This document shows, one piece after another, positions 28,499 through 64,000 of a DNA stretch of 64,000 nucleotides (the first letter of the stretch is position 1; each line of letters starts with the position of its first letter). The stretch covers positions 1,792,001-1,856,000 of the forward strand of contig OY970067.1 of the NCBI GenBank assembly GCA_963705305.1. Direction: 5' to 3'. The notes beneath the pieces are model-generated. The model did no database searches. It was not told the origin of the DNA and saw nothing but the letters and a program-made list of their open reading frames with translations. Source of the DNA: an uncultured Methylomirabilota bacterium. GTDB taxonomy: Bacteria; Methylomirabilota; Methylomirabilia; Methylomirabilales; 2-02-FULL-66-22. The position numbers and the translations under genes were made by a program.

Positions 28499-28576
28499 GT
28501 CCCCATCGTCTAGCCCGGCCTAGGACATCGGCCCTTCAAGCCGACAACGCGGGTTCGAATCCCGCTGGGGACACCA
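28499..28576 (+). tRNA. tRNA-Glu (anticodon TTC; loop CCTTCAA), attL of island 1
   Basis: Acceptor GTCCCCA/TGGGGAC, anticodon stem TCGGC/GCCGA, T arm GCGGG-TTCGAAT-CCCGC, encoded CCA. Confidence 0.93.
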
Positions 28577-48340: not shown

Positions 48341-48502
48341 ATGGCCATGAAACGGACGTCGCTCCATCTGGATGACCGGGACTTGCGGGCCCTGGACCGG
48401 ATCGCCGAGGCGGAGACCAAGGCGACGGGGATCCGGGTGTCCGCGTCCGGGATCGTCCGGCGGCTCATCAAACAATTCCTCCGCGCGCAGGGCCCGCGGT
48501 AG
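48341..48502 (+). CDS. RHH/CopG microprotein (53 aa), not in the ORF track
   Basis: GGAGG RBS; MAMKRTSLHLDDRDLRALDRIAEAETKATGIRVSASGIVRRLIKQFLRAQGPR. Confidence 0.75.
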   Translation: MAMKRTSLHLDDRDLRALDRIAEAETKATGIRVSASGIVRRLIKQFLRAQGPR

Positions 48503-48542
48503 CGCGGGGCGCGAAGGAGATCTGGTCTCTCGGGAGGTAGGC

Positions 48543-50312
48543 ATGAGATACACCCGAACACCCGCCCAGCCGGACCCCGGCCCCCCCGGGCGCCCCTTCG
48601 CGGGGCTCTGCTTCGCCATCTACGGCCGGAAGTCCACCCTCGACGCCCGGCACGAGGACCACAAGTCCGTGACCCGCCAGGTCGAGCAGGCGACGCGCTA
48701 TGTCGAGGCCCGGGGCGGGGAGGCCCTCCCGGGCCACGTGTACCTCGACGACGAGGTCAGCGGGGCGGAGTTCCGGGCGCGGGCGGGCCTCCTGCGGTTC
48801 CTTGACACCCTGAAAAATGGGAGGGCCTTCAACGCGGTCGTCACGTCCGAGGAGTCCCGCTTCGGCCGGGAGCAGCTCGAAACGGGCTACCTCCTGAAGC
48901 AGATCACTGACGCCGGCGTCCGGGTGTTCTACTACCTCGAAGACCGGGAGGCCCGCCTCGACTCGGCCCTCGACAAGATCATGGCCTCGCTCACGCTCTT
49001 CGGCGCCGAGCTGGAGCGGGAGAAGGCCCGGCAGCGGGCCCGGGATGCCGCCGAGCGGAAGGCCCGCCAGGGCCTCGTCACGGGCGGGGAGCCCTACGGC
49101 TACCAGAATGTCCCCTACCGCGCCGGGCAGGAGGTCCCCCCCGGGGAGCCCCACGACTGCGTGAAGCGTCGGATCCAGCCGGCCGAGGCGGCCATCGTCC
49201 GGGGGATCTTCCGGATGTACGCCGCCGGCTGGGGCATCACCAAGATCGCCAAGACCCTGAACGGCGTCCCGACCTATGCCGCGCAGAGCGCGGAATTCTT
49301 CACCGGCCAGCGGGTGGCCGCCCCCCGGACCGGCTCGTGGGCGCCGACGGCCATCCGGGCTATGCTCCACAGCCCCCTCTACCGCGGGGAGCTCGTCTGG
49401 GGACGGACGACGCACACGGACCGCGACGGCCGGGCCCGGCTCACGGCGCGCCGGCCGGCCCGGGAGTGGCTCCGGCAGCCCGCCCCCGACCTGCAGATCA
49501 TCCCGGACGAGTTGTGGGCCGCCGTCCAGGCCCAGCTCACCCGGCAGGCCGAGAAGTTCGCCCAGCCCGGCGCTGGCCGGGTGGCCGCCCCGGACCTCCG
49601 GCGGGAGGGTCGGTACCTCCTCTCCGGCCTGGCCCAGTGCGGCGTCTGCGGGGGGACCTTCGCCGTGGCGGGGGGCAAGTACCGGCGGTACGGCTGCGCC
49701 CACGCCCTGAAGCGGGGCGTCTGCGACAACCGCCTCTCCCAGCGGGTGGAACTGGTCGAGGAATCCTTCCTCGCCACCCTGGAGCGGGAGGCCCTCCTCA
49801 CCCCCGCGCGGTTCCTGCGGGCGGTCGAGTACGGGGTGGCGCGGGTGCAAGAGGAGCTCGCCGCGCAGCCGGACCGGCGGCCCGCCCTGGAAGAGGAGCG
49901 GGCCACTCTCACCCGGCAAATCGCGCACCTCGTGGCGGCCATCGGCAACGGCCATGGCCCGGCGGCCCTGGTGGCGGAGATCGAGAAGGCCGAAACCCGG
50001 CTCCGGGACATCGAGGGGGAACTCGCCCGCCTGACGGTGCCGCCAGCCCTCGGCGTCCTTGACCTGAAGCGGATCGAGCGGGATGTAGCGCGGGAGCTCG
50101 GCCGCTTTGCCGCCCTCCTCCGTGGCGACGTGCCGCAAGCCCGGCAAGCCCTGAAGCGGCTCCTGGCGGACCGCGTGACGTTCGATCCGGTCGAGCTGGG
50201 AGACGGCACGTGGACGTATGAGTTTCGGGGAGAGTTGACCTACGGGGCGGTCTTACAGGAGGTTGTATCTATGGAAAAAATCCCCCTGGGGACACCATTT
50301 ATATATACGTAA
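48543..50312 (+). CDS. Large serine recombinase (integrase); 3' end spans attR
   Basis: YGRKST, ESRFGR, PYGY, LSGLAQCGVCG..YGC..C zinc ribbon, coiled coil; GGAGG RBS. Confidence 0.94.
   Translation: MRYTRTPAQPDPGPPGRPFAGLCFAIYGRKSTLDARHEDHKSVTRQVEQATRYVEARGGEALPGHVYLDDEVSGAEFRARAGLLRFLDTLKNGRAFNAVVTSEESRFGREQLETGYLLKQITDAGVRVFYYLEDREARLDSALDKIMASLTLFGAELEREKARQRARDAAERKARQGLVTGGEPYGYQNVPYRAGQEVPPGEPHDCVKRRIQPAEAAIVRGIFRMYAAGWGITKIAKTLNGVPTYAAQSAEFFTGQRVAAPRTGSWAPTAIRAMLHSPLYRGELVWGRTTHTDRDGRARLTARRPAREWLRQPAPDLQIIPDELWAAVQAQLTRQAEKFAQPGAGRVAAPDLRREGRYLLSGLAQCGVCGGTFAVAGGKYRRYGCAHALKRGVCDNRLSQRVELVEESFLATLEREALLTPARFLRAVEYGVARVQEELAAQPDRRPALEEERATLTRQIAHLVAAIGNGHGPAALVAEIEKAETRLRDIEGELARLTVPPALGVLDLKRIERDVARELGRFAALLRGDVPQARQALKRLLADRVTFDPVELGDGTWTYEFRGELTYGAVLQEVVSMEKIPLGTPFIYT
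50279..50310 (+). repeat. attR of island 1 / left junction of island 2
   Basis: tRNA 3'-end copy followed by TTTATATATACGT, which recurs at 62063-62075. Confidence 0.9.
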
Positions 50313-58771: not shown

Positions 58772-60076
58772 TTAAGTTTCAAGATTAACACCCTTGGTCT
58801 CCGGTGTCCGGAGAATCGCGATGATCGCCATTACCGCGTAGACCATCACCAGAAGCCCGATATAGATATAGGCCTCGCGGACGCCGTAGGCGCGCAGGAG
58901 CAACCCGGCAACAATCGGGATCAGTCCCCCGCCGTACACCTGCGAGATTTGATAAGCCAGGCTCGCGCCTGAGGCGCGATAGCGCGTCGGGAAATTCTCC
59001 GTATAAAAGGTCGGAATCGCGCCGTAGCCAAAGCCGAACACGAAGCCGAAGCCGATGATCTCCGCAACCATGGCGAGGATGAAACTGCCGGTATTGACGA
59101 GAGAGAAATACGGAATCGCGAAGACCAGGAATACGACGGCGGCGATCAACAGGATCGTCCGGCGATTGATGAGATCCGCGAGCAGCGAGCCGATGATCAT
59201 GAACACCAACATGAAAGCTGCGGCGATCAGTCCGATCTTCTCGGGCGCGTCGCCGGTGAAGCCGACCGCCTTCATGTAACTGGTGCCGAACACGAAGTAG
59301 AGGAAGAAGCAGCCACCGAACATTGCATTCACCAGGGAGGTGCGCAGAATGGTCAGCGGCATCTCGCGCCATACCTGCCGCGCTGGGTGTTCGAGAATCG
59401 CGTTCTGTGCCTTGTGCTGATCGAACACAAAGCTGTCCATGGTGCGCGTGCGGATGACAATGCCGACGATCGCCACCAAGAAGCCGGCGTAGAAGAAGAT
59501 GCGCCAGCCCCAGGCAATAAAGTTCTGCGGCGTCATCAGCGACTTGACGAAGATCACCGAGCCGAAGCCGAGCAGCAGCCCGATCGGGATTGCGAAACCG
59601 ACCCAAGCACCCCAGAAAGCGCGGTGCTTTGAACGCGCTGCCTGTTCGACCACCCAGGTTGACGCGGTGCCAAACTCGGCGCCGAAACTGATACCCTGCA
59701 TCAACCGAAAGAGGATCAGCAGCGCCGCCGCGCTGGCGCCGATGCTCTCATAGGTCGGCGTAAGTCCGATCAGCAGCGTACTGACGCCCATCAGCACCAG
59801 CGCATAGACCATCGCGTCCCTGCGCCCTCGCCGGTCGGCGAGATGGCCAAAGATATAAGCGCCAACCGGGCGAATGATGATGCCAAGACCATAGACGCCT
59901 ATCGCCGCTGCGAGCGCCGCAAGAGCCGGCAGCTTGAAGAAGATGCCGCCCCAGACGGTCGCCGCAATCACACCGGTGACCAGATAATCGTATTGTTCGA
60001 TCACCGAGCCGATAATGCTCGCCAGTGCGATTTTATATATCTGTTTACTGGTCGGAGTTGCGACTGCCTCGTTCAT
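58772..60076 (-). CDS. MFS transporter, metabolite:H+ symporter family
   Basis: IEQYDY, RPVGAYIFGHLADRRGRR, RLMQGISFGAE, PETKG. Confidence 0.92.
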   Translation of the reverse strand: MNEAVATPTSKQIYKIALASIIGSVIEQYDYLVTGVIAATVWGGIFFKLPALAALAAAIGVYGLGIIIRPVGAYIFGHLADRRGRRDAMVYALVLMGVSTLLIGLTPTYESIGASAAALLILFRLMQGISFGAEFGTASTWVVEQAARSKHRAFWGAWVGFAIPIGLLLGFGSVIFVKSLMTPQNFIAWGWRIFFYAGFLVAIVGIVIRTRTMDSFVFDQHKAQNAILEHPARQVWREMPLTILRTSLVNAMFGGCFFLYFVFGTSYMKAVGFTGDAPEKIGLIAAAFMLVFMIIGSLLADLINRRTILLIAAVVFLVFAIPYFSLVNTGSFILAMVAEIIGFGFVFGFGYGAIPTFYTENFPTRYRASGASLAYQISQVYGGGLIPIVAGLLLRAYGVREAYIYIGLLVMVYAVMAIIAILRTPETKGVNLET

Positions 60077-60539
60077 TTTCTTTCCTCCGTTTCAAACCTT
60101 TTCACGAAATTGTGATGGGAAAGATCGTAGGAGAATCCGTCCCACCACCGACCATCCCCGCACGGCCTGTGCGTGCGGCGCAGCGCGGGGGCCTTAACCG
60201 GATAGGAAGTTGGAAACCGACCTCGGCGGGACGCCGGGCCGGACGAGGCGGAGCGGCCACGGGGCGGCCGAACCGAGGGGAGAACCCGCGAAGACCTCAA
60301 TACGGCAGGGACGGTACCACCGGCGGGCTGGGGGTGTCAAGGAGGGAAATCACGGGGAACAGGAATACGTTCGGTAGCACGCGGCGCGCCTGTCCCTCCT
60401 GAAAACCCCATCCTGCCGGACCTCACGCCGCTCGCCGTTCATAATGGCGATCTAAGCCGCCGGAACCTCGTGTTTCTAAAGGCGTATGATGCCTGCGATG
60501 TCAAGTGTACAAAAGCCTTCGGGTCCCCCTTATATTCTC

Positions 60540-60740
60540 TTCGAGGGAAATGAGAGTACGTCGAGTATTCTGGCTCCCCCGACGAGACAGGATCCGGAGT
60601 TCGCTGGTTGAGGACCGGAGTCCCCCCATCCCGGGCGAGGATCATCCCCAGACCGTCCCCTCCAGCGACTATACGGCGTCAGGTTCAATGGGAAGTCGTC
60701 CCTCTCGAGGACCGATATAAGGCCAACCCGCCGTTCCGGA
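60540..60740 (+). ncRNA. IS110 bridge RNA (target-binding and donor-binding loops); ends approximate
   Basis: Guides GAGTCCCCC, TCCCCAG, ATGGGAAGTC and ATATAAG match the target and donor flanks; closing stems TCGCTGG/CCAGCGA and ACGGCG/CGCCGT. Confidence 0.85.
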
Positions 60741-60777
60741 CTCCGGGATCCGCTGACGGGAGAAGTGAGGACAGGCG

Positions 60778-61995
60778 ATGCGGTGCTACATCGGGGTGGA
60801 CTGGGCCGATACGGCGCATGCGATCAGGGTGGAGGACACACAGGGGGCCCGGGTGCTCGAGCGGGTCGTCCCTCACACGGCCGAGGGGCTCGCCGAGTGG
60901 GGGCGCTGGCTGGATGAGCGGCGGGCGAGCGGGGCGGAACTCTGGGCGGCCATCGAGCGGCCGGACGGGCGGGTGGTGGACTTCCCCCTGGATCACGGGG
61001 GGCGCGTGTTCCCGATCAACCCCAAGGCCCTGGACCGGGCGCGGGACCGCTACCGGATGAACGCCTCCAAGAGCGACCCCTTCGACGCCCACGTGCTGGC
61101 GGCCTTCCTCCGCACGGATCACCCTCATCTGCATGCCCTGCAGCCGAGCTCGGAGGCCGCCCAGGAGCTCAAGCTCCTCACACGGGACTCTGCGCGCCTC
61201 GTGCGCGACCAGACCCGCCTCGTGAATCAGCTCACGGCTACGCTGAAAGAGTACTACCCCCGGGCCCTGGAGGTCTGTGGCGACGTCCCCACCAAGCGGG
61301 CGGCGGCTTTCCTTCGCGCCTACCCGACCCCCGCGGCCTTGGCGGCGCTCGCCCGGGCCAAGTGGCTCCGATTCGCCACCCTGCATCGCTGGAACGCCGA
61401 GCCGGCGGCCGCCCTCTGGGAACTGTTCCGTCACCCGCAGCTGCCCGTGCCGGAGCACGTGGTGCGCGCCAAGCGCCGCCTCGTCCTCGTGCTGCTCCGG
61501 CCGCTCGAGACCGTCGTCCAGGCCGTGGACGACTCCCGCAAGGCGGTGATGGAGTTCTTCGCGCCGCTGCCGGCGGCGGCGTGGGCCACCACCCTGCCGG
61601 CCAGCCAGGGGACGCTGGTCCCCACGATCTGGGCCGAGCTCGGTGATGCGGCCAGCCGCTGGGTGTCCTGGCAGCACCTCCAGGGGCACAGCGGGGTGGT
61701 CCCGGTGACCCGATCCAGCGGCAAGTCCCACGCGGTCTGCTTTCGCTTCGCGTGCAACCTCCACCTCCGTCGGGCCCTCCAGCAATTCGCCTTCTGCTCG
61801 CTCAAGTCCAGCGAGTGGGCGCGGGCCTACTACGATCAGCAGCGGGCGCGCGGCCATCGGCACCAGGCCGCGCTCCGCGCCCTCGCAGCAAAGTGGGTGA
61901 AGATCCTCTTCGTGCTCTGGACCCGGCAGATCGCCTATGACGAGAACTACCATCTCGCCATGAGGACGCGCCAACAGTTGCGGCAGGCAGCATGA
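60778..61995 (+). CDS. IS110 DEDD recombinase
   Basis: IGVDW, AIE, KSDPFDA (DEDD) and RSSGKS Tnp-domain serine. Confidence 0.93.
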   Translation: MRCYIGVDWADTAHAIRVEDTQGARVLERVVPHTAEGLAEWGRWLDERRASGAELWAAIERPDGRVVDFPLDHGGRVFPINPKALDRARDRYRMNASKSDPFDAHVLAAFLRTDHPHLHALQPSSEAAQELKLLTRDSARLVRDQTRLVNQLTATLKEYYPRALEVCGDVPTKRAAAFLRAYPTPAALAALARAKWLRFATLHRWNAEPAAALWELFRHPQLPVPEHVVRAKRRLVLVLLRPLETVVQAVDDSRKAVMEFFAPLPAAAWATTLPASQGTLVPTIWAELGDAASRWVSWQHLQGHSGVVPVTRSSGKSHAVCFRFACNLHLRRALQQFAFCSLKSSEWARAYYDQQRARGHRHQAALRALAAKWVKILFVLWTRQIAYDENYHLAMRTRQQLRQAA

Positions 61996-62847
61996 GCATC
62001 TTTCTAAAGGCAATACTACTCCGTGCTCTTGACAAGGGGTCATAGGAAGTCTGGGGACACCATTTATATATACGTTCCACGCCGGGAAGTCCGCCCTCGA
62101 TACCGTAAGACATCCGTTCCGGAAAAGTACCCTACTCCTGAGCGATGGTGCCTCGCAGGTGCACGACGACCTCACCCTGATACGGGTAGCTGCGGGAGGA
62201 GAAGTCGTTTCGGGTGCAGCCCGCTGTGTACCCTGGCCGAGTACCTGTGGCTCCTGAAAATACGTAATCAGCTTCCCGGGTGCTCTTTCTCTCACTCTGG
62301 ACCCAGCGGCCTGCCGCGACGAATTCCGTGTGTGACCACAGGACCTGTTGCATGATGCCCATCGGGCCTGCCCGGCGCGCCGTTGCGGGTGGGATGGTCC
62401 GCGCGCGGAATGGTCTCCACCGCGACACCGGGCCGCGGCGGCACCCCGTGTCGGTAACGATGGAGTCGTCGAAAGGTCGGCGGACCAGCCTCCCCTTCGG
62501 GAAGCACACGGCCGGCTTTCCCATTTTCCTGGGAACCCCTTTCGGCGTGGTATGGGGCCCTGTCCCAGCCGCGCTTTTGGGGTAGCCCCTGCACTTGGAG
62601 CGGCCGGAGGAAAGAGACCGACGAGGAGGATATACACCTCCGACGCAGCAGGTTGAGCGCGGGGCGAGCCCAAAGCGGCAGGCACAAAAAAGCCTTCGGC
62701 TCGCGAGAGCCGGAGGTCTCGTCCTCGACAGCCGCCTCATCGCCGTGGTCAGCTGTATGGATGCCCATGCCGCACTCTGTGGCGGGAATCACGGTGAGGT
62801 TGGCGATGGGCCCGTCAATGGTCGTCTTGAGTCCGCGAGTCCCCGCG

Positions 62848-63024
62848 CTACGACGGCATGTGCAGGATGCGCACCGGCATCGCCCGCTCGGCGCAGTCGC
62901 AGTGCCCCACGCACACGATCTGCCCCACGTGGCAGGGGCACTCCACTTTCGGATCCGACGTCTTTCCACACGCGCAGTCCCGGTTCTTCACGGACGCCCG
63001 GTCGGACTTGTTTCCGTACTGCAT
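62848..63024 (-). CDS. Cys/His-rich microprotein (58 aa)
   Basis: GGAGGAG RBS; CAC, CPC and CDC motifs. Confidence 0.5.
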   Translation of the reverse strand: MQYGNKSDRASVKNRDCACGKTSDPKVECPCHVGQIVCVGHCDCAERAMPVRILHMPS

Positions 63025-63085
63025 CACTCCTCCTTGGCACGTGCTTCCAAGCTCGCTTCGGCCTTTCACTGCGGTCGGCAAATGG

Positions 63086-63102
63086 TTCAAGACCGGTGCC
63101 AG
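63086..63102 (-). promoter_or_regulatory. Putative sigma54 promoter
   Basis: CTGGCAC-N5-TTGA, about 60 nt upstream of the Cys-rich ORF. Confidence 0.4.
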
Positions 63103-63427
63103 GAGACGCGCAGAACGATTGCAGGTGGCCGAGACGAGGAAAGTCCAGTTAATGTGGCGGTTTGAGAGTCCGTGCTTCCCGACGTGTGTAGCCGCAATCC
63201 CCCACCAGGGCCATGGGCGTGAGATGCTTTGTCTCAGCGAAAGGCGCAGCATAGGTCGCTGCTGCCGGAGTATCGCTCCACTGCGCGCAAAAATTGCCGT
63301 CCGCAAAAATTCTCTTCGGCGTGCGCTCCGTTTTCGGGAAGCACATGTGTCTACACCCGCGAGCCGAATGCGTGATACCATGCCGCCATTGTATCGCAGC
63401 ACCTCACCCGTACAGGGAAGGACGGAG

Positions 63428-64000
63428 ATGACTCTCGACGAAGTGAAGCGTTCCGTCTATGCGGCCATTGACCAGCGTGCCGACGAGATCATTGCCATGG
63501 GCGAGCGGATCCGGCAGCATCCCGAGCTCGGCTTCAAGGAGGTCCAGACCGCGCGCCTGGTCGAGGAGACCTTCACAAACCTCGGCCTCCCACCGCGGAC
63601 CGGGCTCGCCATCACCGGGGTTCGGGCGGAGCTCCCCGGGGGAGCGGGGCCGGGGCCGAGCGTCGCCCTGCTCGGCGAGCTCGACGCCTTGGTCGTGGAC
63701 GGCCATCCCGACCGGGACCCGGCCACCGGGGCGGCGCACGCCTGCGGGCACAACGCCCAGATCGCCGCGCTCCTCGGGGCGGCCATGGGCCTCGTCGCCA
63801 GCGGCGCGGCGGCCCACCTGGCCGGGCGCGTCGTCCTCTTCGCCGTGCCGGCCGAGGAGTACGGCGACATCGCCTGGCGCCTCGCGGAACGCCAGGCGGG
63901 GCGCCTCGAGTTCCTCGGCGGCAAGCCCGAGCTCCTGCGCCTCGGCCAGTTCGACGATGTGGACCTGGCCGTGATGATCCACACGACCTCCCGCCCGGAA
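63428..64000 (+). CDS. M20 family amidohydrolase (partial, runs off the window)
   Basis: HPELGFKE, GELDAL, AHACGHNAQ, PAEE. Confidence 0.9.
   Translation, partial: MTLDEVKRSVYAAIDQRADEIIAMGERIRQHPELGFKEVQTARLVEETFTNLGLPPRTGLAITGVRAELPGGAGPGPSVALLGELDALVVDGHPDRDPATGAAHACGHNAQIAALLGAAMGLVASGAAAHLAGRVVLFAVPAEEYGDIAWRLAERQAGRLEFLGGKPELLRLGQFDDVDLAVMIHTTSRPE

Follow-up and report, generated by a model that had tools for sequence, protein, structure and literature searches.

An IS110-group insertion sequence with a predicted bridge RNA directed to a tRNA-Glu-like junction in a Methylomirabilota genome

The stretch of DNA analysed here, referred to as the window, comprises 64,000 nucleotides from an uncultured Methylomirabilota bacterium (GenBank assembly GCA_963705305.1, contig OY970067.1, positions 1,792,001 to 1,856,000 of the forward strand), and near its right-hand end it carries an intact insertion sequence (IS) of the IS110 group. 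The element spans window positions 60531-62050 (1,520 bp), is flanked on each side by a CT core and is present in single copy in its source genome, which is complete at 5.65 Mb in one contig. It consists of a recombinase gene between a long non-coding left end, in which a bridge RNA with recognizable guides is encoded, and a short non-coding right end, and it occupies the third of six direct repeats of the 3' end of a tRNA-Glu gene. Bridge-RNA-guided recombination is an established mechanism class, described for IS621 (Durrant 2024, PMC11208160) and, as seekRNA, for IS1111 and IS110 types (PMC11187229). The present element is probably an intact member of this class that lands in tRNA-Glu-derived scars of genomic islands.

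The element and its predicted guide RNA

The features of the element are listed below in window coordinates; all are on the forward strand and were assigned from the sequence unless a further basis is given.

60520-60528, forward: left target CGGGTCCCC (sequence and guide-flank comparison)
60521-60536, forward: left junction, made up of GGGTCCCC (60521-60528), CT (60529-60530) and TATATT (60531-60536)
60529-60530, forward: left copy of the CT core, CT being the sole dinucleotide common to both junctions, as it likewise is in sister copies
60531-60777, forward: non-coding left end of 247 nt, encoding the bridge RNA
60590-60751, forward: core of the bridge RNA (minimum free energy fold and scaffold covariation)
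60617-60625, forward: left target guide GGAGTCCCC, in the same sense as the left target (sequence and guide-flank comparison)
60618-60626, forward: GAGTCCCCC, the 5' string of the target loop as delimited in the initial annotation
60628-60631 and 60639-60642, forward: inner hairpin of the target loop, ATCC/GGAT
60644-60651, forward: right target guide ATCCCCAG, which includes TCCCCAG (60645-60651)
60688-60697, forward: ATGGGAAGTC, the 5' string of the donor loop as delimited in the initial annotation
60688-60698, forward: left donor guide ATGGGAAGT (60688-60696) plus CG
60698-60701 and 60709-60712, forward: inner hairpin of the donor loop, GTCC/GGAC
60714-60722, forward: right donor guide GATATAAGG, with ATATAAG at 60715-60721
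60778-61995, forward: recombinase gene, an intact open frame of 405 aa (PF01548, PF02371)
61996-62050, forward: non-coding right end of 55 nt
62042-62062, forward: right junction, made up of ATAGGAAGT (62042-62050), CT (62051-62052) and GGGGACACCA (62053-62062)
62051-62062, forward: right CT core and right target GGGGA, followed by CACCA, together CTGGGGACACCA

The element is without terminal inverted repeats, and the same CT dinucleotide stands at both of its junctions, as it does in the related copies G019, G016 and L058 that are described below. Its left end is much the longer of the two (247 against 55 nt) and holds the RNA, in keeping with the IS110 group, in which the left end exceeds the right (available text of Durrant 2024, PMC11208160). 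The initial annotation, made from the sequence of the window, had placed the boundaries at these CT cores, and comparison with the G019 copy bears this out: 95.6% identical in DNA, it diverges outside the same CT...CT limits, beyond which only about 20 nt of the left flank are related, and copies from metagenomes agree with the same boundaries. All of the strings and coordinates given in that annotation were recovered as they had been stated.

The recombinase matches PF01548 (DEDD_Tnp_IS110) at E 2e-30, with 105.9 bits against a cut-off of 29, and PF02371 (Tnp_20) in its C-terminal part at E 4e-10, with 40.3 bits against a cut-off of 21.3, so that by Pfam domain match it has the architecture of an N-terminal DEDD RuvC-like domain followed by a C-terminal Tnp domain. 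The NCBIfam model NF033542, 'IS110 family RNA-guided transposase', is matched over positions 1-341 of 343 (E 4e-38, 131.4 bits). The nearest solved structures, ISCro4 (9t56) and IS621 (8wt6), are remote, with E about 1e-7, and ten other PF01548 matches in the source genome are all distant.

Within the left end, a basal stem (60590-60599 with 60741-60751), present in the minimum free energy fold, closes a target loop and a donor loop. In the target loop the left guide GGAGTCCCC is followed by two core-facing bases, CC, the whole occupying 60617-60627; it agrees with the left target CGGGTCCCC at 7/9 positions, the mismatches lying at -9 and -7 from the core. The right target guide ATCCCCAG has the reverse complement CT-GGGGA-T and so pairs with the core plus 5 nt. 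The donor loop is built in the same manner: its left guide agrees with the right-end terminus ATAGGAAGT at 8/9 positions, where the single difference would be a G.T wobble, and the reverse complement of ATATAAG, CT-TATAT, is the core plus the beginning of the left end. Two internal loops are thus present, as in the IS110 group, with one pair of guides complementary to the target and another to the joined ends, and the two-loop RNA of IS621 type that had been proposed, with guides reading the element's own target and donor, stands on its strings as well as on the covariation and the scaffold described in the next section.

The same ends carry the halves of a predicted promoter. TTGACA at 62029-62034 in the right end is the predicted -35 half and TATATT at 60531-60536 in the left end the -10 half, and on joining they would be separated by 16 nt and the CT core, 18 nt in all. 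The TTGACA-N18-TATATT expected from the initial annotation upon circularization is therefore in place as two sequence halves, from which a split sigma-70-like promoter would form, and a search of 60400-62200 in the integrated form gave no sigma-70-like site. TTGACA lies at a fixed distance from the element end in four copies, with a spacer of 17 nt in the G019, G016 and L058 copies and of 18 nt in the window copy. The first three bases of the left end, TAT, together with ATA at 62042-62044 form a short subterminal repeat.

Guides, flanks and sister copies

The scaffold was assessed by covariation in place of single-sequence folding. A protein scan of species genomes gave 15 related loci and a phylum-wide genome search gave matches in 38 of 251 genomes at E <= 1e-60, and after removal of 7 duplicates 36 upstream regions were aligned (alignment A1). 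Structure was counted in 30 of the 36 rows; L002, L005, L007, L014, L016 and L046, which are truncated, rearranged in their 5' part or poorly aligned, were excluded. Row L024 comes from an unpublished genome (G075), and no conclusion rests on it. The six proposed helices, with 26 pairs, are 98.2% paired in the 30 sequences, compared with 91.5% in shuffles, and 9/26 pairs change on both sides in a compensatory manner, while sliding the 3' partners by 1-3 columns reduces pairing to 24-50%.

The two kinds of guide behave differently across these relatives. Donor guides are nearly constant, whereas target guides vary and track the flanks of the copy to which they belong. The left guide agrees with its own flank at an average of 6.46/9 positions, against 3.08/9 for the flanks of other copies (26 loci), and the right guide at 5.00/6 against 1.85/6 (24 loci). 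No permutation in 10000 reached the own-flank sum for the left guide and none in 10000 for the right, a figure that overstates independence because the relatives are kin. Some left guides lie one base out of the fixed register, which lowers rather than raises the match counts. The sixth position of the right guide agrees in only 2/24 loci and, being mismatched in the other 22, indicates that the right guide spans the core and 5 nt. The covariation between guide and target that the initial annotation had put forward as a check on homologues is accordingly present for both guides and beyond chance. One relative, at 65% protein identity, has 7 copies in a single 9.1-Mb genome of the same class (G238).

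Closer copies locate the element at other sites. The copy in G019, a genome of the same genus, is 93% identical in protein, its guides are identical to those of the window copy, and it sits at a different locus, CATCGAATCCCG-CT|IS|CT-GGGGATTCGAACCCACGCC. The G016 copy, 80% identical, is frameshifted and has one nucleotide inserted into its right target guide. It carries the left guide AGAATCCCC, which with the core is the sequence of its host's own intact tRNA-Glu(UUC), and its site is GGGCGTATCCCC-CT|IS|CT-GGGGAATCGAACCCGCGT. Scanning metagenomes with the exact target-loop pattern gave three contigs (L057, L058 and L059), two of which, L058 and L059, represent one locus, GGTTGGGTCCC(C/G)-CT|IS|CT-GGGGAATCGAACCCGCGT; in L057 the left flank is GAGAATATCCCCC-CT and the right flank falls beyond the contig. 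Contigs from public runs added the left junctions ...ACGTGTCCCC-CT (X5) and ...GGAAATATCCCC-CT (RNA run X20), and one from X1, identical to the window, runs across the right junction. Constant across the sister sites is TCCC(C/G)-CT-GGGGA, and the left guides have C or G as their second core-facing base. The sites differ between genomes, which demonstrates recent mobility. An unoccupied version of the window site was not found on comparing window 59000-63600 with 20 congeners, where only the IS or short repeats were matched.

The X20 contigs, from a soil metatranscriptome, align to window 60524-61145 and derive from an approximately 95%-identical copy with a different left flank, of which they include the left end and the first part of the recombinase gene. 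They are not proof of transcription, since carry-over of DNA may account for them.

The tRNA-Glu gene, its repeats and the choice of site

The insertion site is best understood from the features that lie upstream and downstream of it, again on the forward strand.

28499-28576, forward: intact tRNA-Glu(UUC) gene (ARAGORN; Rfam RF00005, 58.7 bits; sequence)
28567, 50288 and 62053, and past the window end 64851, 65873 and 67020, forward: copies of GGGGACACCA forming an array (sequence)
48372-50312, forward: large serine recombinase gene (Pfam Resolvase, Recombinase, Zn_ribbon_recom)

The 3' part of the tRNA gene reads TTCGAATCCCG-CT-GGGGACACCA. The 10-mer GGGGACACCA occurs 28 times in the genome, and six of these occurrences fall within 38.5 kb, all on the forward strand, the first being the tRNA-Glu gene and the rest lying downstream of it (the three past the window end are at genome positions 1856851, 1857873 and 1859020). 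Six copies in 40 kb were reached in none of 20000 random placements. The 12 nt at 62051-62062, CTGGGGACACCA, are identical to the last 12 nt of the tRNA gene and constitute repeat 3, at which the IS is inserted. Direct repeats of a tRNA 3' end, on one strand and downstream of the gene, are expected of remnants of attachment (att) sites, and the tract between and around them encodes, besides the serine recombinase, IS3-, IS630- and rve-type transposases, an Mrr nuclease, AbiU2 and a DnaB-N/AAA_25 pair. An array of this kind with mobile-element and defence genes looks like the serial accretion of islands at tRNA-Glu. A comparable set is present in G019, which has an intact tRNA-Glu(UUC) gene and six 3'-end fragments of 26-45 nt.

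The last codons of the serine recombinase gene cross repeat 2 (CTGGGGACACCA at 50286-50297). The frame runs through the tRNA-like repeat and through the conserved TTTATATATACG that follows it, and a similar C-terminal coding stretch occurs at genome position ~1601900 beside an inverted copy of TTTATATATACG. A serine recombinase open reading frame placed beside the L057 insertion, as at repeat 2, was looked for and not found.

The target that the RNA encodes, GGAGTCCCC-CT-GGGGA, is the T-loop/T-stem/acceptor junction of the tRNA-Glu(UUC) of the genus, and the resemblance to the T-stem/acceptor junction of tRNA-Glu noted at the outset is confirmed. In G008 and G016 the tRNA-Glu genes read GAATCCCC-CT-GGGGA, one base from the target encoded by the window element, and GAATCCCC-CT is also what the left guide of the G016 copy spells together with its core. 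On the opposite strand, the right flanks of the G016 and L058 sites spell a tRNA-Glu T-arm whose register agrees with that of the core, and the identity extends over 14 contiguous nt (G016) and 12 (L058) that lie wholly beyond the footprint of the guides. Of the 14-nt run at the G019 site, 5 bases belong to the footprint, and the site is matched best, among 53 tRNAs, by a tRNA-Ala T-arm. When the four rebuilt empty sites were aligned locally to the 53 tRNAs, tRNA-Glu(UUC) was the best for 3/4.

The choice of site was assessed after deleting the IS from the genome in silico. The 16-mer GGAGTCCCC-CT-GGGGA is then matched nowhere with <=1 mismatch and at 19 sites with two, the occupied site among them, its mismatches being the distal ones at -9 and -7. 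The 12-mer TCCCCCTGGGGA occurs 8 times in the genome, against 2.6 expected from base composition, and three of these are in the tRNA-Glu array.

The proposal that the element homes to tRNA ends, or to the att remnants that islands leave behind, is accordingly upheld in part. The array site and the tRNA-Glu affinity of three of the four resolved sites support it, whereas the weak alignment scores and the L057 and X5 flanks, taken up in the next section, do not. The insertion sites of homologues are of two kinds: a sub-lineage is found at tRNA-Glu-like sites, but relatives at 57-71% protein identity aim at unrelated targets that resemble repetitive extragenic palindromes (REPs), and the tRNA preference is therefore a property of one sub-lineage's guide and not a family trait. 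Derivation of the target from tRNA depends on a handful of sites and is partly supported.

One element of the initial annotation did not survive comparison, namely the suggestion that the intact tRNA gene may be spared by a mismatch next to the core. The G019 copy, with the same guides, occupies TCGAATCCCG-CT-GGGGA, and the 17-mer of this site, TCGAATCCCGCTGGGGA, is also found unchanged in the intact tRNA-Glu of both G000 and G019. Against the guide, the G000 tRNA differs at -9 and -1, with a possible G.T wobble at -6, and for the CCCC-type tRNA found in G008 and G016 the sole difference is at -9, beside the same possible wobble. The tRNA-Glu(UUC) genes of G000, G019 and G016 are all intact. 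Insertion in the tRNA would sever the 3' strand of the acceptor and the CCA from the only tRNA-Glu(UUC), and selection is therefore the simpler account of why the gene is free of the element; it would be kept so by selection and not by guide mismatch. A softer form of the mismatch idea may retain some force, in that the only host with a perfectly matching tRNA (G016) carries a decayed copy, a single case.

Proposed mechanism and competing explanations

By analogy with IS621, the element would be excised as a circle, bringing the TTGACA of the right end next to the TATATT of the left end and so creating a promoter, a function that the joined ends may have. That junction promoter would drive expression of a bridge RNA of ~200 nt and of the DEDD/serine recombinase. 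Within that RNA, the donor loop would then pair with the joined ends of the element, ATAGGAAGT-CT-TATAT, and the target loop with about 9 nt to the left and 5 nt to the right of a CT core, at which the recombinase would exchange strands. RNA-guided chemistry is in this sense attributed to the window element by homology to IS621. The landing site would be repeat 3 of the six left by integrating islands downstream of the tRNA gene, and as the encoded target is the tRNA-Glu junction, the element would be expected to land in tRNA-Glu-derived sequences.

Several observations weigh against this account. Neither a circle junction nor an empty site nor RNA ends were observed, and the contigs of four runs gave no joints. 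The fold energy of the single RNA sequence is no better than that of shuffles (z 0.47). No family of Rfam 15 matches the bridge RNA; scans of 60300-62300 by E-value gave nothing, those of the window and three loci at the gathering threshold gave only tRNAs, and none of the curated families covers the bridge RNA or the flank repeats. The NF033542 score is 8.6 bits below the equivalog cut-off of 140, a full-length match beneath threshold that points to a divergent member, and the similarity to IS621 is remote (PDB E 6e-7) and confined to ~100 C-terminal residues. In the alignments to tRNAs the four sites scored 18-20 against a null of 14.2 +/- 2.4, values reached by 9-35 of 400 random pieces, so that the tRNA-likeness of each site taken individually is weak, and no clear likeness to tRNA is seen in the left flanks of L057 and X5. 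By a simple count of guide matches, 18 other genome sites equal the occupied one. Finally, the module that forms the left flank (the 'A module') also lies between ordinary transporter genes.

Much of this bears on whether the resemblance to tRNA is incidental, the element being directed to a short GC-rich palindrome, TCCCC-CT-GGGGA, as its relatives are to theirs; tRNA-Glu ends and att cores would hold that palindrome because acceptor and T stems are self-complementary. The relatives at 57-71% identity do aim at REP-like CCCTCACCC..CT-CTCCC sites, only TCCC(C/G)-CT is constant among seven left junctions of the lineage while the distal left target varies, 4/8 genome TCCCCCTGGGGA sites lie outside tRNA-like repeats, and according to the available text of a preprint, the specificity of ISPpu10 is increased by a stem-loop in the target. 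The distal positions of the left guide thus seem to be loosely used, and a plain preference for the palindrome stays a live rival. It fits less easily with the in-register identity to tRNA-Glu over 12-14 nt outside the footprint at two sites, with a guide 15-mer within one base (<=1) of a congener's tRNA-Glu and with the presence of 3/8 genome TCCCCCTGGGGA 12-mers in the tRNA-Glu array, and we regard it as possible although rather doubtful. A different history strikes us as unlikely, namely that the IS first inserted into the att core of a circular integrative element and reached the tRNA-Glu locus through the integration of that element. Such a history draws on an unoccupied paralogue of the empty site at genome positions 4791690-4791725 (L060 17690-17725), homologous as a unit over the whole site. 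The paralogue consists of a palindrome of the acceptor end of tRNA-Glu and, after it, TTTATATATACG; it lies directly upstream of the start codon of a tyrosine integrase, beside tRNA-Leu(UAA), and may serve as an att core or as an operator of the integrase. The DNA flanking the IS is, moreover, seemingly strain-specific and is rich in mobile-element genes. No integrase or recombinase gene, however, lies beside repeat 3, and the guides fit the site in both histories, so that carriage of this kind would alter the history of the element and not its mechanism.

It is also conceivable, and in our view quite improbable, that the element is a dead relic whose sequence is intact by chance. Its single copy in a complete genome, its promoter spacer of 18 nt where its sisters have 17, and a right end that differs from theirs between the stop codon and the last ~32 nt could be taken in that way. 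The recombinase frame is nevertheless open, guides and scaffold are identical to those of the G019 copy at another site, and the G016 copy illustrates true decay with its frameshifts and its inserted guide base. An intact bridge-RNA element that lands in tRNA-Glu-derived island scars is hence the reading that we favour.

In its organization the element resembles IS621 of E. coli (8wt6), judged from the available text of the primary report: a CT core at both junctions, a left-end RNA with target and donor loops, 5' guides in the sense of the left arm and 3' guides antisense to the right arm with the core paired, a short ATA...TAT subterminal repeat and a promoter split between right and left ends. 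It differs in its protein, which is only remotely similar, in a left guide of about 9 nt where IS621 has 7 and a right guide of core plus 5, in the second core-facing base of the left guide (C or G here, U in IS621) and in its natural target, a tRNA-Glu-like junction in place of a REP. With ISPpu9, ISPpu10 and ISPa11, as available accounts describe them, it shares short palindromic repeated targets and perhaps a target hairpin that adds specificity, but those elements use REP families with hundreds of copies, whereas the sites here are a handful per genome and derive from tRNA 3' ends and island junctions. IS1111-attC elements (ISKpn4, ISPst6) and IS4321/IS5075 are similarly described as aiming at the sites of other mobile elements (attC and the Tn21 terminal repeats, respectively); they belong to the IS1111 group, with a right-end guide RNA and long subterminal repeats, in contrast to the IS110-group element of the window, whose apparent prey is the att remnants of tRNA-integrating islands.

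The natural targets named in the available text of PMC11208160 and PMC11187229 are REPs, integron attC sites, Tn21 ends and a short linear site. The available main texts of Durrant 2024 and Siddiquee 2024 do not mention 'tRNA' as a target, and in the Durrant supplements, one of them a scan that is unsearchable, the word appears only in protein-alignment strings and software help text. Full-text searches of the literature yielded no IS110-family element for which tRNA ends or the att scars of islands had been reported as targets. The architecture and mechanism are thus already known, and it is the class of natural target that is unreported. Within one clade REP-like targets and a tRNA-Glu-derived junction are both found, which makes the element a clean natural case of target-loop reprogramming, and a genuine preference for att scars would add a third class of mobile-element recombination site, after attC and Tn21 ends, to those parasitized by the IS110 family. 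How a host survives an RNA guide that nearly matches an essential tRNA gene is a question raised by these findings, and for genome engineering the element offers a divergent recombinase/RNA pair with recognition of about 9+2+5 nt.

As a tentative proposal, and one that may well prove wrong, the guide of the sub-lineage could copy the junction of the host genus's single tRNA-Glu(UUC) and use island scars as a small multi-copy safe harbour, the tRNA staying unoccupied only through selection, to which a single mismatch beside the core would add in some hosts. Splitting of att sites and recombination between IS copies could then freeze or reshuffle islands, which would explain the mixed left and right modules around CCCC-CT-GGGG junctions. 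Such modules occur in several combinations, which either integrases or the IS may have produced. The 40 nt of the IS left flank recur at genome position 4780300, in G020 and in G018, where they precede an inverted T-arm-like sequence between ordinary genes.

The flanks and the right end hold some further repeats. An AT-rich 10-mer, TTTCTAAAGG, has only four copies in the genome, one in the left flank of the IS (window 60473-60482), one inside its right end (62001-62010) and the others at genome positions 4780423 and 1701883, one of the four being upstream of the paralogous left-flank module; the right ends of the sister copies are without it, a distribution that suggests exchange between the flank repeat and the right end of the window copy. 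The 10-mer prompted the idea that the left flank is the right end of another IS110 element, which was rejected, as no PF01548 match lies near either copy. A non-coding repeat of ~150 nt at 60184-60342, upstream of an MFS transporter gene, has at least five further copies in the genome and others in several congeners and has no Rfam match. On the other side of the element, a right-flank repeat of ~200 nt (62244-62446) recurs at genome positions 1724777, 1208963 and 501348 with 74-82% identity.

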